Positions 1,809 to 50,858 of a stretch of DNA of 64,000 nt are shown in pieces. The position numbers and the translations under genes are program-made. Positions within the stretch are counted from its first letter, which is position 1, and the number at the start of each line of letters is the position of its first letter. The DNA is from an uncultured Clostridia bacterium (GTDB lineage Bacteria > Bacillota > Clostridia > Christensenellales > UBA1242): positions 35,143 to 99,142 of the forward strand of contig CALVYR010000001.1 of NCBI GenBank assembly GCA_944372325.1, read 5' to 3'. A model generated the notes under the pieces. That model had not been told where the DNA came from and searched no databases. It saw nothing but the letters and a program-made list of their open reading frames with translations.

Positions 1809-2426
1809 TTAAACTTCAGCAATACCAATATCTATTTGTATGTTTTGATTAACATTGATATTTGAATTTTGCCTTAACAATACATAGTAAATATTTAAAG
1901 TTACTGTTTCGCCTGTTTGCACATAGAAAATTACATCTGCGTTATTTTCTTGATCTGCTGCAACTTCTGTTCTTTGCCCATCATCTATCTGCACTTCTGC
2001 AATAAACCTAGGGTCTTCAAAGTAATTTGTGTTTTTGCTATCAGATACTATATCTTTAAAGGATATCTTCAGCACATTACCTACTTGAGTTGATGTATTT
2101 GTGAAAGCAAAGGACATAACCACTTCATTAGTATCAGGAAGTACATTATTGAAGTTTATATCTGGAGCATCCCAACGGTTACTTGGATGAATGTTTCCAT
2201 CTTCATCTACACTGATTGTTATAGAAGGTTCCTTACCACTTGTATCGCCTCCTATTGCCCATGTGGCTTCACATACAACGCTAAATGATAACTCTTGTTC
2301 AGGAACAAAAGTAACTGAATTTGTTATTCCAAAATGTGGTGAAACTGCTACAACTATACCTAAAGTTATTACAGCTAACACAACAACCATTACAACTATG
2401 GAAGATATGAATTTAAACTTTTTCAT
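1809..2426 (-). CDS. N-terminally anchored or secreted beta-rich protein, TasA/camelysin-like, paralogous to the N-terminal domain of the 550-aa protein at 47655-49307
   Basis: RBS GGGGAGG lies upstream of ATG 2426. The N-terminal hydrophobic segment is ISSIVVMVVVLAVITLGIVVAV. WDAPDINFNN...EVVMSFAFTNTS aligns with WAIGDINYTS...VVVYEFTVSNYS of the 550-aa protein. Confidence 0.6.
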   Translation of the reverse strand: MKKFKFISSIVVMVVVLAVITLGIVVAVSPHFGITNSVTFVPEQELSFSVVCEATWAIGGDTSGKEPSITISVDEDGNIHPSNRWDAPDINFNNVLPDTNEVVMSFAFTNTSTQVGNVLKISFKDIVSDSKNTNYFEDPRFIAEVQIDDGQRTEVAADQENNADVIFYVQTGETVTLNIYYVLLRQNSNINVNQNIQIDIGIAEV

Positions 2427-38840: not shown

Positions 38841-40511
38841 TTATCCTAATAAATCTTGATAATTTGAAATATGAATTGTTAAGTTTTTAATATCCTTTTT
38901 CAAAACATCTAAATTCATTGTTTCAAAAATTGAATAAGTGTCTGTTGCAAGTTCTTCATAAATTTTATCAAAAAGTGTTTTATTATTGAACACATTTAAA
39001 TATGTGTTTTGAATGGTGTTTACAATTTCTGTTAGTTCATCAAAATTTGCTGTATCTAAATTAAAGTTATCTGGGTCTGAAATTGTAAAAGCATTGGTAA
39101 CTGGGCCAGCGTAGAAGATAATGTGAACACCATATTCAGATACACAATATCCAATAGAGCCATACTCTCCGTTTCCATTATCCCAAAGCTCACGAGATGT
39201 TTCTGTAAAAGAATCAACCATTTGGCTATCGTTTTTCCCTATAACATAGCAGTAGTCTGCATTCATGTTACCAGTATCTTCGTTATAGGTATAGATATAG
39301 TCCTTAAAAATTTGTGTTTTTTTGTCGTCTGATACCCCAGTCATTTCAGAAGTTAATTGGTTATAAATATCAGTTGGTGAATAAGATGTTGCTTCTCCTG
39401 TTTGAATGTTTTTAGCTTTAATTTTATCAGCTTCTGCTTCTAAAGCATCGTTATATGCCTTTTCTGTAATTGTTCCGTTATTTAATTTTGCTTCTAGTTC
39501 ATCTATATAAGCTGTAGTTTCATCGTCATATTGAAGTAAGATATGATTTACATAAAAGTAATCGTTATTAATTATATAGTCTACATCTTCCCTACTGCTT
39601 AAAATATCTGTGCTAAACTGTGATGAATTTAAAGTGTATTTGGTATAACTTGAAATCATATCTGAAGTAAGTTTCCTTAAAACTTGGCTTACAGAAATGT
39701 TAGAAATATCGTTATCACCTTGAAGTTGTTCGCTATAGAGTTCTATATATTTGTTTTCTGTTACAACCTCGTATATTCTTTCAACTTCTCTTTTAAACAC
39801 TTCATCATTATTTGTTGAAAGGCCTCTACCTTCCTCTGTTGCTTTTAATGCTTCTATATACTGCCTTTTTGCTTCTGTGAGAACATCTTTGTTTGCTGAT
39901 GAGTTAATTCTGTTATTTACAGTTTCTATTAGAGAATCTATCTCTTTTCCTTCATCATAGTAAAGATCTACATTTTGGCCTACACTTGTGTTTGTATCTA
40001 AAAGTTTAATAACATATTTTCCGTCTTGTAATACAATTTCCGCTTGTTTATCATAAGGGGTATATTCTGTTGTGCTTTCCTCTTCTTCATCTAGAGTGCT
40101 TGGAATATTTAATTTCCATTGTTCTATAACTAGTTCTTCATAGGAAGAAAGATTGGATATAATTGTATCGTAAGCATCATCCCAAATAGCGTTTAGATCG
40201 CCATTTCCAAAGGTTATAGAATTTTTAGCAGCAACAAGCATTACCTCACGATTTGTTAAAACTTCTATAGTTGCATCTATAGCATCTTGCATTGAATAGC
40301 CGTAGCTATTTACAAGTTGAGCGCCGTAAGAACTGAATGCCGTAATTAAATCTTCCTTAGTTATTTTTACATCTTCCCCGTCTGCCGTTTGAAAAGTTAC
40401 AATAGGGGCGTTTAAATAGTTCGCTTGATTTGTTGGGAATAGATTACACCCCGTCAAAACAAAGGAAAAACTTATTAAACATATAAAAGCCAGTGTTAAA
40501 AATTTTTTCAT
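38841..40511 (-). CDS. Lipoprotein, probably a PrsA/SurA-like foldase with a parvulin-like core
   Basis: Lipobox L-T-G-C (FVLTGCNLF). VNHILLQY and GYCVSEYGVHIIFY resemble parvulin PPIase boundary motifs. Its position downstream of pth-mfd matches that of prsA-like genes in many Firmicutes. Confidence 0.55.
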   Translation of the reverse strand: MKKFLTLAFICLISFSFVLTGCNLFPTNQANYLNAPIVTFQTADGEDVKITKEDLITAFSSYGAQLVNSYGYSMQDAIDATIEVLTNREVMLVAAKNSITFGNGDLNAIWDDAYDTIISNLSSYEELVIEQWKLNIPSTLDEEEESTTEYTPYDKQAEIVLQDGKYVIKLLDTNTSVGQNVDLYYDEGKEIDSLIETVNNRINSSANKDVLTEAKRQYIEALKATEEGRGLSTNNDEVFKREVERIYEVVTENKYIELYSEQLQGDNDISNISVSQVLRKLTSDMISSYTKYTLNSSQFSTDILSSREDVDYIINNDYFYVNHILLQYDDETTAYIDELEAKLNNGTITEKAYNDALEAEADKIKAKNIQTGEATSYSPTDIYNQLTSEMTGVSDDKKTQIFKDYIYTYNEDTGNMNADYCYVIGKNDSQMVDSFTETSRELWDNGNGEYGSIGYCVSEYGVHIIFYAGPVTNAFTISDPDNFNLDTANFDELTEIVNTIQNTYLNVFNNKTLFDKIYEELATDTYSIFETMNLDVLKKDIKNLTIHISNYQDLLG

Positions 40512-43500: not shown

Positions 43501-43756
43501 AATTATCTTTAATGCCAAATAAATTTGTAAAAGATGAGGTTAAAATTTTGTTTTTAGCCCCAAGCGCATTTGCTTGAGCTGAAATTGTTTCCGCCGTCAC
43601 AAGATCGCCAGCCATTAAAATTCCATGTTTAGAAAATGAAAAAAATATGCCTTCTGTAGGTGCATTTAAACCAAAAAGGCATTGCTTTTTACCATCTTTT
43701 AAGGCTTGCTTAAAGCTTGTAAGCTCACCAGATTTAAGTAAAATTTCTAAGTTCAC
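40586..43756 (-). CDS. mfd: Transcription-repair coupling factor Mfd
   Basis: 1056 aa. The GTG start overlaps the pth stop. Helicase motifs GDVGYGKTEVA, DEEQRFGV and LSATPIPRTL are present. Confidence 0.95.
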   Translation of the reverse strand: MNLEILLKSGELTSFKQALKDGKKQCLFGLNAPTEGIFFSFSKHGILMAGDLVTAETISAQANALGAKNKILTSSFTNLFGIKDNSTFYEFIASLCDFLTGKLQGLIVLPEVLFERVPKEEDILKSIIKLDKNITFNSLISRLIENGYTRVEQPARKGQFSVRGDIIDIWEISGTNLIRAMYFGDDLEKLQIVSSEDFSLLEEVDDIEIYPAVLKNLTKENILSFKANIFYDEPKKLVQEAENFNSSLGEDKKLFLSIDDIFKSKNNSLISFNNLLAQTNFFKPDEVLSFKTASAKKYLFDYRELVKDISIFLRGGYKISLFCGNENNKNKMQKFLLENSITTVDDDHLDAGVRVFSDYLPQSAWLLSLDSVLIGTDDLYKKNVVKSNKKQKVFYTPKVGDYVVHELHGVGKCIALTRMKLADVEKDYFVIEYAGGDKFYLPSEQAGSISAFLGSDTAPKLNKLGGAEFERIKEKVYKNVKELAINLLELYSEREKQKGFKYTEGGYLYDMFEQAFEFEETEDQLSAISDVLSDLEKGKVMDRLICGDVGYGKTEVALRAIYKAILNGKQVAFLCPTTILAEQHYATAKKRFEGFMVRLNKLNRLVPETQVKEIKKSIASGDLDLVIGTHKLLANDVVFKDLGLLVLDEEQRFGVGDKEKIKALKKDIDVLTLSATPIPRTLHMSLSGIRDISIIETPPKERLPIQTFVVEESEELIVDACKKELSRDGQILIVYNRVETIYDFANRIKELLPDVKIGVAHGKLPQKMLEDTILKLYNGDFQILIATTLIENGVDLPLANTLIVIDSDKLGLSQLYQLRGRIGRSNRLAYAYFTFNGSKVLTEQAYKRLEAIMEFTDLGSGFKIAMRDLEIRGAGNVLGKEQHGHMEKVGYDMYCKLLQDAVKELKGEKVKEKKEIKMDISLSAYIPENYITSEAERIRRYSEISEISNLEELEKTKKELITSYGELPEEVENIILIAYLKNLAQEEDVKRVFINNNYCKLYLYKRDEILSPKLANLIEKNKDIAVLKFEDVPIIELYMPLNAKDKVKKLISLLKN

Positions 43757-44286
43757 TTTTTTAACCCTTTAATATGATTTAATATATAGTCCGCTGAAAG
43801 GTCTATAACTTCATCTATTATTTCTCTAGACTGTTCGTCCATGTTTGAAAGTACATAGTCAGCAAGGTCAAAAGGCTTTTCTTCTGGTTTTATACCTATT
43901 CTAACACGCTTAAAGTCTGTGCCGATGTTTTGAACAATACTTCGCATTCCGTTATGTGTGCCTGCACTTCCCGCCTCACGATAGCGAAAGGTGCCCTTAG
44001 GTAAATCTATATCATCAACGACAACTAGAATTTGGTTATTTTTTAATTTGAATTTATTTTTAAATGACTGCACGCTTGCGCCAGATAAATTCATGTAGGT
44101 TTTAGGTTTAGCTATTATAATCTTCTCGCCATCTAAATTTCCTTCTGCCACGCTTGCTTTTGAATAAGTTTTAGAAAACTTTACACCAAGTTTATTTGCA
44201 ATTTTATCCGCAGTTAAAAAACCTATGTTATGATAGGTATTAAAATATTTTTTATCTGGATTTCCAAGCCCTACAATTAAAAACAT
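43753..44286 (-). CDS. pth: Peptidyl-tRNA hydrolase
   Basis: 177 aa with GLGNPDKKYFNTYHNIGF and the GTHNGMRS motif. Ends in TGA. Confidence 0.95.
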   Translation of the reverse strand: MFLIVGLGNPDKKYFNTYHNIGFLTADKIANKLGVKFSKTYSKASVAEGNLDGEKIIIAKPKTYMNLSGASVQSFKNKFKLKNNQILVVVDDIDLPKGTFRYREAGSAGTHNGMRSIVQNIGTDFKRVRIGIKPEEKPFDLADYVLSNMDEQSREIIDEVIDLSADYILNHIKGLKK

Positions 44287-44297
44287 AACTTTTCCTT

Positions 44298-45080
44298 TTA
44301 ACTAGACTTTGCTACAACGCTTTCATATGGCCCTACTACTGTCTTTTCTGAAATTCTGCTTTCGCTGATGTATGAACACTTAATGATACATTCATCTGAA
44401 ATTATACTATTTTCTATTACACTGCCAAACTCGATTTTGCAGTTCTTTCCTATAAAACTAGCGCCCTTTATATAGGTGTTAGGCTCAAGCACTGTGCCCT
44501 TTTCTATCATGACATCGGCATCTATAAAAGTGCTTAAGGTGTCATTAATTTGAACGCCGTTAGAAAGATGAAAATTTATTATTCTATTTTTTAAAATTTT
44601 AGACACCTTTGCAAGCCCAGCATAGTCCTCTACCACAGTGAAATCATCTGTTCCAAAATCTTCTTGGACAAGCACGCGAATGCTATCTGCATTTCTAATG
44701 TAATCTGTATTAAAAACATACCCACGCCTGAGTGGCAATACATTTAAATCTCTTTGGCGGACATAGGTCATGATTTCATTTAAAGTTTGCCTTTTAAATA
44801 GTGGTGTGTCTGAATATAACACAACTGTGTATTTGCTATCCGTTAGAAGTGGCTTAATTAGTGTGAGTACATCAGATTCTGGAGTGCAAGGAATGGTTTT
44901 AATCATGTAGCCATCACAGGATAGAGCTACCCATTCCCACATCTTTTTACCCCAAATTTTTAAATCGTACGACTTCATAAACTCGCCGAACTTCTTTTCA
45001 AGCATAATTATTACTGAAATTTCATTATCTACAAGTTTTGTTTCCTTTTCCATAACAGTTAATGTTTCAATAACAGCCAT
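44298..45080 (-). CDS. Truncated GlmU-like protein with a degenerate motif (nucleotidyltransferase-like domain plus start of the left-handed beta-helix)
   Basis: 260 aa. Aligns by eye to roughly the first 330 residues of Bacillus GlmU (YSDTPL vs GDTPL; NRIINFHLSNGVQINDTLSTFIDADVMIEKGTVLEPNTYIKG vs the GlmU LbH onset). The LAAGxGTRM signature is replaced by IMLEKKFGEFM, and the acetyltransferase C-terminus is absent. Confidence 0.6.
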   Translation of the reverse strand: MAVIETLTVMEKETKLVDNEISVIIMLEKKFGEFMKSYDLKIWGKKMWEWVALSCDGYMIKTIPCTPESDVLTLIKPLLTDSKYTVVLYSDTPLFKRQTLNEIMTYVRQRDLNVLPLRRGYVFNTDYIRNADSIRVLVQEDFGTDDFTVVEDYAGLAKVSKILKNRIINFHLSNGVQINDTLSTFIDADVMIEKGTVLEPNTYIKGASFIGKNCKIEFGSVIENSIISDECIIKCSYISESRISEKTVVGPYESVVAKSS

Positions 45081-45090
45081 AAATTCACCT

Positions 45091-46389
45091 CTACTTATTA
45101 TACTTCTTTACATCAGCTTTTGCAAGCTTTAAAGCGTCCTCATAGCTTCTGCCACCTTTTACATAGAGCGCAACATAGCTTAAAAGTTTTACTTTATTCT
45201 TGTAATTGCCTTTTTTATAATAGCTTTTCCAATAATTCCAATACTCTCTAGCGCCCTTTTTATCATAGATATCCAAAGATATATCAACCGCCTTTATGTG
45301 CTCGCGCTGTTTTTTAGAGAGCTTTACATTCTCTGGATAAACCCATAGGAAATCTCTAACCTCAGCTTTATCTTCAGGCGAGGTTACATCGTAGAAATAA
45401 ATTTTATCAAACTCACGCATTTCGTAGCCAACATTGGCTTTTATGGACTCCTCATCATCAAATTTCATTTGTCCTGCCACAACTTTTCTTTCCGTCATGA
45501 GCGCGCTTACTTGTTCAAGGAGGCTTAACATTTGCATGAATATGAGAACTGTTAGTGGAAGTATAACTAAAATAATCATACCAATTCCACTTGCGCAAAA
45601 TTTAAACACAGAGCGTATCCATTGCGGAGTGTTTATATACTTTCCCACAACTAAATCTTCTCTTATTAGATAGCTATCCGCTGAAGAGTTGCTATCACCC
45701 TTTGTTTCAAAAAATCTAACACCGCTTTCATCTACATAGACAGCTACAATTCTGTGGAAATAAATTCTAGTATACTCTGTTATAAGTTCATCTGCAGTCT
45801 TTCTATTTTCATATTCCCCGCGCGTTGGCTCTTCAATGTTATCAAAATCTGTAATCAAAGTAAAGGTTGGCCTTAAGCCTCTATCCACGCTATCTTGAGC
45901 ATAGTAGAAAGCTATGATATCTCCCTCGTAGTCATCGCTTTTAGGCCTGAGATTATCTGTGTTTGTTTTGTTTATTATAACAATATCATTTATTTCAAAC
46001 CCACCTGCACGCATACTTCCGCTTTGAATTGCAGCAAAGCCAACACCAAACACAGTGTTTACTTCATTCTTTCTTTGATTTGAATACAAAACAAAGCTAG
46101 AAAATAGTGCAATTATTATAACCGGCACAATTATGCAGTCGGAAATAATGCCTAGGATAGCATAAAATGTCCTCTGCTTCTTTTTTGGTTTATTTTGACT
46201 ACTTAAATTAATTTCACTTAGGCTCTTCTGGTCTTTTTGGTCTTTTGGGGAGTTTTGGTTTTTCTTCTCCTCTATCTCCGCCGTCTGCTTGCTTGTTTTC
46301 AGCTCCTCCTTGTTCTCCACTTTGGGCTGAGATTGAGCCTTCTTTGGTGGTCTCTTTGGCAGAGCCTTGCTCGTTTTTTTCTGTTCCAA
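45091..46389 (-). CDS. SipW-type (ER/archaeal-type S26) signal peptidase paralog 1, with a second TM and a conserved C-terminal cytoplasmic domain
   Basis: Contains the Ser box SGSMRAG, the His box FHRIV and ETKGDSNSSAD. TTG 46389 has AAGGAG 6 nt upstream. The first in-frame ATG (the M of SGSM) lies after the N-terminal TM and inside the Ser box, so it cannot be the start. Confidence 0.7.
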   Translation of the reverse strand: MEQKKTSKALPKRPPKKAQSQPKVENKEELKTSKQTAEIEEKKNQNSPKDQKDQKSLSEINLSSQNKPKKKQRTFYAILGIISDCIIVPVIIIALFSSFVLYSNQRKNEVNTVFGVGFAAIQSGSMRAGGFEINDIVIINKTNTDNLRPKSDDYEGDIIAFYYAQDSVDRGLRPTFTLITDFDNIEEPTRGEYENRKTADELITEYTRIYFHRIVAVYVDESGVRFFETKGDSNSSADSYLIREDLVVGKYINTPQWIRSVFKFCASGIGMIILVILPLTVLIFMQMLSLLEQVSALMTERKVVAGQMKFDDEESIKANVGYEMREFDKIYFYDVTSPEDKAEVRDFLWVYPENVKLSKKQREHIKAVDISLDIYDKKGAREYWNYWKSYYKKGNYKNKVKLLSYVALYVKGGRSYEDALKLAKADVKKYNK

Positions 46390-47491
46390 GTTTTTCTCCT
46401 TGCTTTAAATTTTTTGCGTCCGCTTCTTTTATTGCGCTTTTAATTCTCCATTCCTCTCTATAGAAATTTAGCTTTTCTTTATTGCCCTTACCCTTAATTT
46501 TTTCTATCCACATATCAAAATATGCTTCTGGGTTAGTTTTAAAAGTGGCAACCGCTTTCTTTACAAACTTGTATTCTTCCTTTTCCTTTTTACTGCCCGA
46601 TTCAAGATGTTTCCATAAAAAGTCCTCCACGCCTTGCTTATCTTCCTCAGACGCCAGCGCATAAAACCGGACTTTTTCTATGTCATTCATCTCTATTCCA
46701 ACATTGGCTTTCAAGCTTTCTGGAGCGTTGTATCTAATTTTACCCTGAATGACAGATTTTTCTATCATCATATTATTAGTTTGCTCAATCAAGCTAAAAC
46801 ATTCAAATAAAATTAAAATTCCAAGTGGTAAAACAACTAAAAGTATCATGCCCATTTGAGAAGCGCAAAACCTAAAAGTTGCCCTTAGCCAATTTGGAGT
46901 GTAGGAATATCTCCCCAGCACATAATCAGCCCTAATTTTTGTTGTATCCTTGCCAACATTTCCCGTGCCCTTTGTTTCTAAAAACAGCGTGCCATCGTCA
47001 TCTACATATCTTCCCACCACTTCGTGAAATACAATTCTTGTGGTTGTGGGAAGCTCGCTTGCGCTCAACCTATCTTCCGCCCCACTAACTGTCAGGTTAG
47101 AACTATCTGGCGCAGTTAAAACCTCATCATTGCTTACTTCAGTTAAATGGATGTTTCTATCCGCAGGGTCAGCATAAGAATAAAAAGCAATTACATCGCC
47201 AAGCTCGTCTTCTATATCATTTGGCGTGCCCACCTTCAAGGTGTAGGGGTCGCATTTAGTTAAAAACAAAACATCGCCCTTCATAAACCCGCTAGGCTCC
47301 ATGCTTTCAGAGGCAACAAACACAAGTGATAAGCCAAATATGCTAGGAAGAGTGTTTTGACTTCTTGCCACAAACATAGCCGAGCTTGAAATAAGCGCGA
47401 TTAAAATAACAGGAATTAAAATAATATCCCCGATTATACCAAGAACTTGATAAAAAGTTTTATTCTTTTTAGTTTTCTCTACATTAGTCAC
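46214..47491 (-). CDS. SipW-type S26 signal peptidase paralog 2, with a Lys/Glu/Gly-rich C-terminal tail
   Basis: GTG start. Contains SESMEPSG, FHEVV and ETKGTGNVGKD. It has the same TM / catalytic domain / TM / ~130-aa tail architecture as paralog 1 (KANVGIEM...DFLWKH vs KANVGYEM...DFLWVY). Confidence 0.7.
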   Translation of the reverse strand: MTNVEKTKKNKTFYQVLGIIGDIILIPVILIALISSSAMFVARSQNTLPSIFGLSLVFVASESMEPSGFMKGDVLFLTKCDPYTLKVGTPNDIEDELGDVIAFYSYADPADRNIHLTEVSNDEVLTAPDSSNLTVSGAEDRLSASELPTTTRIVFHEVVGRYVDDDGTLFLETKGTGNVGKDTTKIRADYVLGRYSYTPNWLRATFRFCASQMGMILLVVLPLGILILFECFSLIEQTNNMMIEKSVIQGKIRYNAPESLKANVGIEMNDIEKVRFYALASEEDKQGVEDFLWKHLESGSKKEKEEYKFVKKAVATFKTNPEAYFDMWIEKIKGKGNKEKLNFYREEWRIKSAIKEADAKNLKQGEKLGTEKNEQGSAKETTKEGSISAQSGEQGGAENKQADGGDRGEEKPKLPKRPKRPEEPK

Positions 47492-47654
47492 GCTAGTAGT
47501 TTACCACCAAAGCGCTAAAAAAACAAATAAAATTGAAAAAAGGTTAAAAATAATATATTAAATTAAATAGTTTTATAAAATAGCAAACAAAAAAGCTGAA
47601 GTTAAAAATTAAAACTTTAGCTAATTGTTAAATATTAGTGTCAGCCCGCAAGAT

Positions 47655-49307
47655 TCAAGATTGGAGATTGAAGAGCAAAGCCGGGCGCGCGCCGTAGGGC
47701 TCAAAGGACACATAGTAGTAGTCCACATCACCATAGTAGTACACGTCGTATGCGATTTTGGTGGCGGAGGCCGCGGAAGATGTCCAGTAGTACGAGCTCC
47801 CTAGTCCATGAATGTCTGGGTAGTTGCTTGTAGTTTTATATGCGCAGTTTGCCATTGCAAAGTCTGTTGCACTCGCTCTTCTTTGTTGGTCTTGGTTACT
47901 ATATGATGAATTAAATCCATAGTCTGTATTTATCATATCATAGTAACTTGGTGCAAATACGTTTAATTTTTCTGTTGATGCTATTGTTAAACTGGAATCA
48001 TTAGGATTAGTTTGACCATATTTTGTTGCATCTAAATCTGCATCTGTTAATGTTCTTTGTGCTATTAAAGCTTGCTCTTCTGCTGTAAATGCGTCTGAAT
48101 AGAACACTTCATTTAAAAATGGTCTTAATGCATTTGTTTCTGCACTATAATGTGTGTGGTTTGTATTACTTGTACTTGGGTTAAAGGTTGTATTAGCACT
48201 TAATACATATTCACTTAGTAAATATGATACTGGGGTTGTATTTTCTGTATCTGTGTAGTTCTCAGTTAATACTCTCCACTGTATTGGCTCTACTTTAAAC
48301 CAGTAAGTTTCTCCGTTCTCTATTGTTGTTCCGTCGTTAAACGTTTTTGCTCCACTTTTATATAAATCTGCTTGTGGTACTCGGCAATAGGTGTTGCCGT
48401 CTATATATTCGTAAGCGTTATATACTACTGGTTCGTTTAATGTTGAACCTGAATAACCTTTATACGCTGTATATGTTTCTGCTACTGGCTGGTTTGTATA
48501 CCATGCTTCTAAAGTAGCGTTCATTGTGTCGCCTACATAGGTTTGTGGGTATTTGCCAAAGTATACAAAGGTATATGTTTGCCCATTTATTACTTCTTGC
48601 TCTATTCTATATGGGGGTTCTTTTTGTTTAAAACTAACATTCATTTCTATCGTGCTAGTGGCTAAGTCGCTCATAAAGTTATTTAACGTTACTGCTATTT
48701 TATAGCATGCTTGCCCAGGCGTTGTTTCGTTTGTTCTTGCGGGTATTGTAAAGTTATATGTAGGCGAGCCAGTGGCAGTGGCAGAATTTGAAGTTGTGCC
48801 TGTATATGTTGCAATAGTTAGCTGACCTTGTTCTACATAGGTTGCTAGCGCTTCGCTTATGCCAGATACTGTTCCTTGCACTTCAAACGGAGAATAGTTT
48901 GATACTGTAAACTCATACACTACAACTTTATTTGTACTTGTGTAGTTTATATCCCCTATTGCCCAAGTGTCTACTTGCGTGCCACTTTGGTTTACAAAAT
49001 ATGTTGTAGACGGCTCGCCGTTTGGTGCGTCTGGCGTTGCACCTGTTGCCATTCTTGGATAGGAATAAGCCTTAAATGTATTTTGCCCTGTGGGCGCTTC
49101 TGTACCAGATAGTACTTGCGCACTGCTTACGTCTGTCCCTTGTTTTAAGCTTGCGTCTACCATTACATACACGCCATCAGCTTCAAACCTAAGCGTGCTT
49201 GTAACATTTAATGTTGCAGTAGTTGCAGATAGCACGCCCACAACAAATAAACTAAGGCACACGCAAAGTGTTGCAACTATTGCTGTTATTCTTACCCTTT
49301 TACTCAT
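47655..49307 (-). CDS. Secreted 550-aa protein: TasA/camelysin-like N-terminal beta domain plus C-terminal domain with GKYPQ...WRVL...RPAL motifs (DUF6273-like)
   Basis: RBS AAAGGAG. Signal-anchor ITAIVATLCVCLSLFVVGVLSA. The N-terminal domain is paralogous to the 205-aa protein at 1809-2426. The C-terminal half contains YFGKYPQTYVGD, WFKVEPIQWRVL and GARPALLFNL. Confidence 0.7.
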   Translation of the reverse strand: MSKRVRITAIVATLCVCLSLFVVGVLSATTATLNVTSTLRFEADGVYVMVDASLKQGTDVSSAQVLSGTEAPTGQNTFKAYSYPRMATGATPDAPNGEPSTTYFVNQSGTQVDTWAIGDINYTSTNKVVVYEFTVSNYSPFEVQGTVSGISEALATYVEQGQLTIATYTGTTSNSATATGSPTYNFTIPARTNETTPGQACYKIAVTLNNFMSDLATSTIEMNVSFKQKEPPYRIEQEVINGQTYTFVYFGKYPQTYVGDTMNATLEAWYTNQPVAETYTAYKGYSGSTLNEPVVYNAYEYIDGNTYCRVPQADLYKSGAKTFNDGTTIENGETYWFKVEPIQWRVLTENYTDTENTTPVSYLLSEYVLSANTTFNPSTSNTNHTHYSAETNALRPFLNEVFYSDAFTAEEQALIAQRTLTDADLDATKYGQTNPNDSSLTIASTEKLNVFAPSYYDMINTDYGFNSSYSNQDQQRRASATDFAMANCAYKTTSNYPDIHGLGSSYYWTSSAASATKIAYDVYYYGDVDYYYVSFEPYGARPALLFNLQS

Positions 49308-49902: not shown

Positions 49903-49967
49903 CGTTGCTATTAAAAAAATAAAAACTAATCTTACTATCCGCGTTCAAAACTCTTTTTTTTAATTAT

Positions 49968-50198
49968 GCGGGTCACGGGAGGAGATCCTTCGGCTTCGCT
50001 CAGGATGACAACGGAGTAACGCCTACGCTAGAGCCCTCGAAGCCTCTTGCAACGCCAAGCTTTCACACACCAGCAAAGCCATGCTCCGCCCTCCACCCAC
50101 GCGAGCCCTGCCCACGCTAGCCGTCATTCTGAGCGGAGAGCGTTTACGCGACTATCCGCGAAGAATCTCCTTTTCGCCCGAGCTAGCCAGACTCTGCC
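49968..50198 (+). repeat. GC-rich direct repeat R1 (231 nt), upstream of the GIY-YIG gene
   Basis: About 90% identical to R2 apart from one indel. Internal inverted arms are ggagatccttcggcttcgctcaggatgac (49981-50009) versus gtcattctgagcg...cgcgaagaatctcc (50123-50170). The first 60 nt are 37/60 G+C, whereas the adjacent 50201-50260 is 7/60. Confidence 0.85.
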
Positions 50199-50293: not shown

Positions 50294-50587
50294 ATGAAAA
50301 AAGGCTATGTTTACATTCTTACAAATAAATATAACAATGTTTTTTATGTTGGCGTAACATCAAATATAAAAAGAAGAATTTATGAACATAAAAATCATAA
50401 ACTTAAAGGCTTTACTAATAAATATGATGTTATTAAAGTTATTTATATTGAAGTTTTTGATAAAATAACAGATGCTATTACAAGAGAAAAACAAATTAAG
50501 GGTTGGTCTAGACAAAAAAAGATTGATTTGATAAAAACTTGTAATTCAAGTTTTGACGATTTATATAATACAATTATAAATTCCTAA
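50294..50587 (+). CDS. Small GIY-YIG nuclease family protein (UPF0213/YhbQ-like)
   Basis: 97 aa from ATG 50294. GYVYILTN-x8-FYVGVT forms the GIY-YIG motif, followed by RRIYEH and REKQIKGWSRQKK. Confidence 0.85.
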   Translation: MKKGYVYILTNKYNNVFYVGVTSNIKRRIYEHKNHKLKGFTNKYDVIKVIYIEVFDKITDAITREKQIKGWSRQKKIDLIKTCNSSFDDLYNTIINS

Positions 50588-50604
50588 TTTGTTATTTTTT
50601 TCAA

Positions 50605-50858
50605 GCGGGTCGCGGGAGGAGATCCTTCGGCTTCGCTCAGGATGACGAAAAAGGAAAACCTTTTTCGCTCGCAACGGAGTAGCGCCTCCGCCAGAGCCCT
50701 CGAAGCCTCTTGCAACGCCAAGCTTTCACACACCAGCAAAGCCATGCTCCGCCCTCCACCCGCGCAAGCCCTGCCCCAGAGCCGTCATTCTGAGCGGGGA
50801 GCGTTTGCGCGACTATCCGCGAAGAATCTCCTTGCTACCCTTGCTAGCCAGACTCTAC
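50605..50858 (+). repeat. GC-rich direct repeat R2 (254 nt), downstream of the GIY-YIG gene
   Basis: Collinear with R1. It carries a 26-nt insertion (50647-50672) that contains its own perfect 8-bp hairpin gaaaaagg/cctttttc. Confidence 0.85.

Follow-up and report, generated by a model that had tools for sequence, protein, structure and literature searches.

Duplicated SipW/Sec11-type signal peptidases with a family-specific cytoplasmic tail, and a leader-defined class of candidate substrates, in uncultured Clostridia

The subject of this study is a pair of adjacent genes, which we call pepA and pepB, in a 64,000-nucleotide stretch of contig CALVYR010000001.1 from an uncultured Clostridia bacterium (hereafter the window, meaning the whole stretch of DNA that was analysed). 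The two genes encode divergent, membrane-anchored signal peptidases of the endoplasmic reticulum (ER)/archaeal type, and directly upstream of them, in the same orientation, lies the gene of a secreted protein of 550 residues, an arrangement that the original prediction, made from the letters of the window, had described correctly. All three belong to a run of minus-strand genes at 38.8-49.3 kb, which reads 550-aa gene, pepA, pepB, a glmU-like gene, pth, mfd and the gene of a 556-residue lipoprotein (Table 1). As laid out below, relatives of these peptidases are repeatedly found next to small secreted proteins with one and the same type of leader, and a dedicated relationship between the enzymes and such proteins is, in our view, the probable explanation.

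The assignment to the ER/archaeal type, proposed in the original prediction, was confirmed by several lines of evidence. Namely, the Ser box reads SESM(EP) in pepA and SGSM in pepB, the His boxes FHEVV and FHRIV, and the TKGD-like Asp boxes TKGTGNVGKD and TKGDSNSSAD, respectively; all of these, together with the tail motifs KANVG and DFLW, are present as they had been quoted. The two proteins align with 40% identity over 336 residues, tail included (E 1e-74), and residues S61, S63, M64, H156, T173, G175, N178 and D182 (pepA numbering) are invariant across 14 family members. Among the hidden Markov models (HMMs) of NCBIfam, the SipW model (NF046067) matched pepB with E 5.6e-14 and pepA with E 3e-11 (52 and 43 bits versus a cutoff of 190 for this equivalog model), and the archaeal signal peptidase I model (TIGR02228) matched both at E 1e-12 (1.4e-12 for pepA; 47.8 and 47.7 bits versus a curated cutoff of 51.85), as against E 0.028 for pepA and no match for pepB with the bacterial-type model (TIGR02227). 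Neither protein matched the S24/S26 families of Pfam at E<=0.1. When a profile of the 14-member family was compared with PDB sequences, only SEC11C (E 1e-3) and SEC11A were retrieved, and in the SEC11C alignment the Ser box of the family pairs with SGSMEPA and its His and Asp boxes with VHRV...TKGDNNEVDD. What is more, the marks of LepB-type (S26A) enzymes were not found, the general-base position being occupied by His, not Lys, and the TIGR02227 match reaching E 0.028 at best. Because of the matches to the SipW and archaeal models, the exclusive retrieval of SEC11 proteins from the PDB and the invariant Ser, His and Asp residues, we class pepA and pepB, on the basis of their sequences, as divergent S26B enzymes that are neither LepB-type nor equivalogs of Bacillus SipW.

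Each peptidase contains two hydrophobic segments, and the charge is distributed as +3/+10 at the N-terminus, -10/-7 in the middle domain and +2/+3 in the tail (pepA/pepB). Taken together, these two features fit a topology with the N-terminus and the tail on the cytoplasmic side and the ecto-domain outside. In these enzymes, an insert of about 50 residues lies between the GDxIxF strand and the His box. The tail itself, roughly 120 residues with KANVG and DFLW in both proteins, is followed in pepA by some 70 residues of low complexity. Its AlphaFold2 model, built on an alignment of only 11 sequences, is all-helical, with eight helices (pLDDT 91, pTM 0.81); Foldseek gave no fold match for this model in the PDB (best E 1.5, TM-scores 0.2-0.39), and none of the 11 tails matched Pfam. 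A second transmembrane (TM) helix followed by a conserved cytoplasmic domain had been foreseen in the original prediction, and both are there. It had also listed the two as features missing from Bacillus SipW, which stands for the long folded tail and falls for the helix: Bacillus SipW also has a C-terminal TM helix, without a long folded tail.

A HMMER search of 1.84 billion cluster representatives with a profile of the tail returned 139 matches. The matching proteins are mostly 350-560 residues long, the start of the tail falls, with few exceptions, at residues ~220-290, and most of them have the peptidase boxes as well. In other words, the tail is a real, conserved folded domain and, as far as can be seen, private to this family of tail-type peptidases. 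The family falls into two groups of roughly equal size, namely a window-like group, often in tandem pairs, and a single-copy group around one peptidase that we label P0195; tandem pairs recur at the loci numbered L001-L005, L007-L009, L014, L015 and L031. For the genome scan for relatives, the closer of our family alignments (A2) was used, A1 being too divergent. All family members come from metagenomes or metagenome-assembled genomes (MAGs) of uncultured Clostridia, the closest named relative being Candidatus Caccopulliclostridium gallistercoris, and the names on record for 10 tail-type clusters were uninformative, the sole one being 'hypothetical protein'. Many members add long, K/P/E/T-rich disordered extensions, with PQ-rich or K/P/T-rich ones of up to 400 residues, and the pepA ortholog P0013 has an N-terminal cytoplasmic extension of about 230 residues in which KKRGRPKK is repeated six times, reminiscent of AT-hook DNA-binding motifs. 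A 775-residue protein (P0138), taken up as a candidate for a natural pepA-pepB fusion, was rejected: there is an in-frame TGA, followed by an ATG 17 nucleotides later, and the protein is two adjacent genes merged by the gene caller, probably through a wrong genetic code. Since the tail is cytoplasmic, confined to the family and attached to basic disordered segments, its most likely, if speculative, role is that of a docking or regulatory surface, be it for the other paralog, for the translocon or for another partner; added regulation had been suggested in the original prediction, too. Why an enzyme that acts beyond the membrane should have such a domain in the cytoplasm does call for an explanation.

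We now turn to the 550-residue protein. It starts with a leader of 27 residues (MSKRVRITAIVATLCVCLSLFVVGVLS/A, where the slash, here and below, stands for the cleavage point, a predicted one in the proteins of this study; also written …VGVLA/ATsAtfNVtStLnF), continues with an N-domain of about 205 residues, for which AlphaFold2 gives a confident beta-sandwich (pLDDT 89), and ends with a DUF6273 domain (Pfam, E 1.5e-10). As defined from an alignment of 120 N-termini, the leader class has a K/R-rich start, a hydrophobic segment of 20-24 residues, often with SLCL or TLCLCLS, and a site with Gly at -4 followed by [VI]-[LWFY]-[AS]/A, that is, position -2 is bulky and position +1 is Ala. Only 4-6 residues past this site begins a beta-strand in which polarity alternates (x-F/L-x-V-x-S-x-L-x-F/Y). 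The leader HMM matches the 550-aa protein with E 7e-26, and the putative site agrees with the type I cleavage rule in nearly all members. The leader and the N-domain recur, often with ~80% identity, in more than 150 homologs, whose C-termini consist of either DUF6273 or leucine-rich repeats (LRR_5/LRR_8), and there are also short proteins in which DUF6273 follows straight after the leader and first strand. Because leaders and N-domains that remain ~80% identical are paired with C-terminal halves that switch, the sequences suggest frequent domain shuffling within a large paralogous family. In some of the homologs (P0018-P0137), a related beta-sandwich domain is present once more in the interior of the protein.

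The same leader is also found on much smaller proteins. An N-domain HMM that was built from a single alignment (A4) missed the small proteins of other lineages, and the link to them needed an HMM of the leader plus first strand as well as profile-profile alignment: with hhalign, the 550-aa-type N-terminus aligns with the small proteins at a probability of 97% (E 8e-11), the aligned region running from the leader to the middle of the domain. A profile search with the small proteins found 143 unnamed proteins of ~190-220 residues, none with a Pfam domain, and on two of three contigs examined, the copies are dispersed and have no peptidase nearby. One such protein, of 205 residues and a second candidate substrate, is encoded in the window itself, 43 kb from the peptidases; its near-identical homologs (P0282-P0298) are likewise unnamed and without a Pfam domain. 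Since this protein is among the 17 sequences from which the profile (A7) was built, its membership rests on the match to the leader HMM.

The strongest reason to connect the peptidases with these proteins is found in relatives of the window. At locus L011, three proteins of ~205 residues are encoded in tandem upstream of P0195, a single-copy tail-type peptidase, and on its strand; their leaders (MTKKKLIITITSLCLVVVAAVAAVVGIIAATNVGINSNLSVSYTP) clearly belong to one class with that of the window (MSKRVRITAIVATLCVCLSLFVVGVLSATTATLNVTSTLRFEA). To this locus and L013 we added 15 loci from a metagenome scan for the P0195 subfamily. In this combined set, 12 sister-subfamily loci extend 1 kb or more upstream of the peptidase, and nine of the 12 have one to five leader-bearing genes of ~200 codons within 4 kb upstream on the same strand. 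All 24 leader matches (E<=1e-5) in the fetched loci lie on the strand of the peptidase. Usually, the cargo genes and the peptidase gene are separated by the gene of a ~190-residue protein, membrane-anchored at its N-terminus and remotely paralogous to the cargo; this gene lies directly upstream of that of the peptidase (at L011, the two genes overlap by 17 nucleotides at the peptidase start); by analogy, it is possible that this accessory protein is the counterpart of TapA. The window has no equivalent of it. In the window-like group, two loci (L015 and L031) have pepA-pepB followed by one or two cargo genes, 173 and 375 nucleotides away, and a third (L014) has one leader-class gene 9 kb away. 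Seen family-wide, in other words, the peptidase is conserved next to secreted candidate substrates, and in the clade of the window it is not.

All told, we consider it probable, with substantial room for doubt, that pepA and pepB are duplicated, membrane-anchored ER/archaeal-type signal peptidases of the Ser-His-Asp kind that are dedicated to exported proteins of this leader class. Such a dedicated relationship of enzyme and substrate is the best explanation because two otherwise rare, unannotated families recur side by side on the same strand. In the mechanism that we propose, the exported proteins would be recognised through their near-invariant four-part leader, and cleavage at its site, by one peptidase or perhaps by both in cooperation, would expose a beta-strand as the new N-terminus of a beta-sandwich domain of ~200 residues. 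In the sister lineage, this domain would be exported on its own, in one to five tandem copies together with a divergent membrane-anchored paralog, all in one operon with the peptidase. In the lineage of the window, the domain would instead form the N-terminal part of larger proteins with interchangeable payloads (DUF6273 or leucine-rich repeats), with the genes of these proteins scattered around the genome and the peptidase pair fixed in a housekeeping operon pepA-pepB-glmU-like-pth-mfd. A further extension, which we put forward as rather doubtful, is that the N-domain is a self-assembling subunit, the N-terminal strand of which would enter a neighbour after cleavage, as in TasA or chaperone-usher pili, giving a sortase-independent fibre with swappable LRR or DUF6273 adhesin payloads, and that the fused tails couple export or assembly to an intracellular partner. 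Polymerisation of the released domains is speculation at this stage.

Several points weigh against a dedicated role. The family-HMM scores of both peptidases lie under the curated cutoffs; cleavage and its position are inferred from the sequences; the long hydrophobic segment of the leader could be an uncleaved membrane anchor; and the only apparent fusion of the two peptidases proved to be a gene-calling artefact and so lends no support to their joint action. No cargo gene is adjacent to the peptidases at L001, L003-L005 and L007-L010, the pair in the window's clade is co-oriented and tightly packed with housekeeping genes, so that a role in general secretion fits equally well, and cargo paralogs are so numerous in the genomes of this clade that a single adjacency such as that in the window could be due to chance.

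Indeed, the main rival for the clade of the window, which we regard as unlikely, is that pepA and pepB serve their lineage as type I signal peptidases for general, housekeeping secretion, the 550-aa gene being one of many for secreted proteins and having been inserted beside them by chance. The order pepA-pepB-glmU-like-pth-mfd-lipoprotein is kept in six related MAG loci (L001-L005, L008), and at L001-L005 and L007-L009 the pair belongs to a conserved, operon-like cluster that also comprises the glmU-like gene, pth, mfd and the gene of a foldase-like lipoprotein, with only 10 nucleotides between the pepB stop and the glmU-like gene in the window. The upstream neighbour of pepA varies, being plsC in L001, L003, L004 and L005, alaS in L002 and rplL in L008, and the 550-aa gene stands next to the pair in none of these six loci, only in the window; at L002, an N-domain homolog lies 4.7 kb away. 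The three-gene arrangement, expected in the original prediction to be co-conserved, is therefore peculiar to the window, and by the criterion that the prediction itself had set, the three-gene module fails. Together with a gene for a GIY-YIG-like protein of 104 residues, the 550-aa gene fills a slot between plsC and pepA; in relatives, this slot is empty. Because plsC, alaS or rplL directly abuts pepA in the relatives, the 550-aa gene and the repeat-flanked GIY-YIG gene are a local insertion, and from the sequence it looks like a mobile one. The repeats in question are GC-rich and direct, about 250 nucleotides long and 78-100% identical in pieces. The glmU-like gene, pth and mfd, for their part, are the conserved genomic setting of the pair and not part of a secretion module. 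Against an accidental neighbourhood speaks the fact that the sister subfamily, as well as L015 and L031, consistently pairs the same peptidase architecture with leader-bearing proteins on the same strand; moreover, housekeeping and dedicated roles are compatible with each other.

The original prediction went further and saw here a divergent, duplicated version of the TasA/SipW module, with a TasA/camelysin-like N-domain in the 550-aa protein. Of this, the logic of a dedicated peptidase plus cargo is retained, thanks to the gene neighbourhoods in relatives, and the TasA homology and the conserved three-gene module found no support. A true, very divergent module of this kind, with an N-domain homologous to TasA and fibres formed by donor-strand exchange, strikes us as quite improbable. 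The operon logic of tapA-sipW-tasA (PMC4551309) and sipW-bsaABC (PMC7395162) does recur, the cargo is likewise ~200 residues long, beta-rich and secreted, with tandem paralogs and a divergent accessory paralog, and the site x-[W/L]-A/A resembles, at the level of the motif only, the experimentally known TWA/AF site of TasA, whose signal peptide comprises 27 residues (PMC4551309). In addition, the weak Foldseek matches of the N-domain (E >= 4e-3, TM <0.3) are pilins, flocculins and APC10, with the pilins and donor-strand subunits PitB, FimA, FimG and CanA among them at E 4e-3 to 4e-2. However, neither Peptidase_M73 (Pfam) nor TIGR04088 (the SipW-cognate signal peptide model of NCBIfam) matched any of seven cargo proteins, namely the 550-aa protein and six related small proteins, at E<=5, and TasA was not found in a PDB sequence-profile search starting from the cargo. 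With hhalign, a TasA query verified to be identical to residues 1-234 of 8AUR matched the domain with a probability of 0.3% and the leader by itself with one of 4.9%, and in the Foldseek search of the N-domain model against the PDB, TasA was outside the 50 best matches, all with TM-scores <0.3. Homology of the cargo to TasA thus received no support from Pfam, NCBIfam, the PDB profile, hhalign or Foldseek. Finally, that the leader is merely an uncleaved N-terminal anchor tethering proteins unrelated to the peptidases is very improbable, for although its hydrophobic segment is long for a signal peptide and lacks a polar c-region, the Gly at -4, V/I at -3 and small residues at -1/+1 agree with what type I cleavage requires in nearly all members, and a plain anchor would leave the conserved adjacency to a signal peptidase unexplained.

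Some details of the gene layout complete the picture. The 5' end of pepB overlaps the low-complexity 3' end of pepA by 176 nucleotides (46214-46389) in a different frame, both frames encoding K/P/E-rich low-complexity sequence; the TTG start of pepB, with AAGGAG 6 nucleotides upstream, was judged the best one. Comparable overlaps of 98-248 nucleotides are present in the tblastn coordinates of L001-L005, and more distant peptidase pairs overlap by 14 nucleotides or less, or not at all. The gap between the 550-aa gene and pepA, 158-163 nucleotides of AT-rich DNA with promoter-like hexamers, contains a single hairpin, which is weak and A/U-rich (-10.9 kcal/mol, z -0.8), and a terminator consensus scan of it found none. 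Given a 163-nucleotide AT-rich gap with promoter-like hexamers, separate transcription of the 550-aa gene and pepA is likely. The 556-residue lipoprotein downstream of mfd is syntenic in all close relatives and without a Pfam family; clostridial genomes often carry a PrsA-like foldase at this position. Elsewhere in the window, two giant open reading frames (ORFs) lie next to each other.

Table 1. Coordinates of features in the window and, where a locus is named, in relatives
Feature	Coordinates	Strand	Remarks
550-aa secreted protein	47655..49307	-	candidate substrate; leader, beta-sandwich N-domain, linker, DUF6273
N-domain of 550-aa protein	48612..49226	-	aa ~28-232
DUF6273 of 550-aa protein	47673..48221	-	aa 363-545
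pepA	46214..47491	-	SipW/Sec11-type (S26B) signal peptidase, 425 aa, GTG start; TM1 aa 11-44, ecto-domain with ~50-aa insert, TM2 aa 206-238, helical tail, K/E/P-rich low-complexity C-terminus
pepA Ser box SESM	47300..47311	-	aa 61-64; predicted catalytic Ser S63
pepA His box FHEVV	47015..47029	-	aa 155-159; H156 predicted general base, as in S26B enzymes
pepA cytoplasmic tail domain	46436..46798	-	aa 232-352; KANVGIEM and DFLW; eight helices in AlphaFold2 model
pepB	45091..46389	-	paralog of pepA, 432 aa, TTG start; ~70-aa basic low-complexity N-terminus, then pepA-like architecture; SGSM aa 123-126, FHRIV aa 211-215
pepB tail	45157..45528	-	aa 288-411
glmU-like gene (260 aa) and pth	43753..45080	-	directly downstream of pepB, followed by mfd
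556-aa lipoprotein	38841..40511	-	signal …LTGC
GC-rich direct repeat	49944-50195		
GIY-YIG-like ORF, 104 aa	50273..50587	+	flanked by the repeats
GC-rich direct repeat	50581-50856		
205-aa protein	1809..2426	-	second candidate substrate; same leader class (leader HMM E 5e-7), single beta-rich domain
Giant ORF, 3235 aa	4690..14397	-	starts with lipoprotein-type signal …LLLTACGDP
Giant ORF, 5584 aa	14404..31158	-	
Accessory gene, ~190 aa, L011	3119-3682		
Accessory gene, ~190 aa, L013	9257-9829		
Accessory gene, ~190 aa, L017	7498-8124		
Accessory gene, ~190 aa, L018	9429-9986		
Accessory gene, ~190 aa, L027	2067-2642		
P0013, L008	10001-11740		pepA ortholog
P0138, L034	4050-6377		two genes merged by gene caller

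How does all this compare with what is known? To our knowledge, dedicated SipW-type peptidases are known for only a few matrix proteins (TasA/TapA, CalY, BsaA). According to Terra and colleagues (2012), the cytoplasmic C-terminus of SipW reportedly has a second, non-proteolytic role. The tapA-sipW-tasA genes of Bacillus subtilis form a peptidase-cargo operon (PMC4551309), and the family described here resembles it (and sipW-tasA-calY of B. cereus) in that an ER/archaeal-type peptidase with N- and C-terminal membrane anchors lies beside a few beta-rich secreted proteins, in that a major subunit is accompanied, in the sister lineage, by a divergent accessory or anchor paralog, and in that the putative site, as in TWA/A, lies between two Ala residues (-1 and +1) that a bulky one (-2) precedes. 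Unlike SipW, however, the peptidases studied here possess a folded cytoplasmic domain of ~120 residues, disordered basic extensions and a ~50-residue insert in the catalytic domain; unlike the Bacillus operon, those in the window's lineage are duplicated in tandem and housed in a housekeeping operon; and unlike TasA, to which no relationship was detected in sequence or fold, the cargo is multidomain (DUF6273/LRR) and dispersed in the genome of the window. In the sipW-bsaABCRSD operon of Clostridium perfringens, SipW is required to export BsaA, a beta-rich protein of ~23 kDa that polymerises extracellularly, and bsaB and bsaC encode further secreted paralogs (PMC7395162); compared by description and not by sequence, that operon differs in having a single SipW and its own two-component regulation, with no C-terminal tail domain described (PMC7395162). 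The Sec11 subunits of eukaryotes and archaea, the only solved relatives by sequence (7P2P/7P2Q), share the Ser...His...TKGDxNxxDD boxes, and differ in that they have one TM helix and separate accessory subunits with cytosolic domains, whereas here the cytosolic domain is fused to the peptidase itself. What emerges from uncultured gut and rumen Clostridia is, in this sense, a separate, unannotated peptidase subfamily with a fused cytoplasmic domain, together with an unannotated cargo family with a sharply defined leader, which is a testable substrate-recognition motif for S26B enzymes. In the lineage of the window, the leader and the N-domain recur as a shared unit ahead of various putative adhesin domains, which points to a lineage-specific route to the cell surface. 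By analogy, our best reading is that of a system like tapA-sipW-tasA, new in its cargo family and in the tail of its peptidases.

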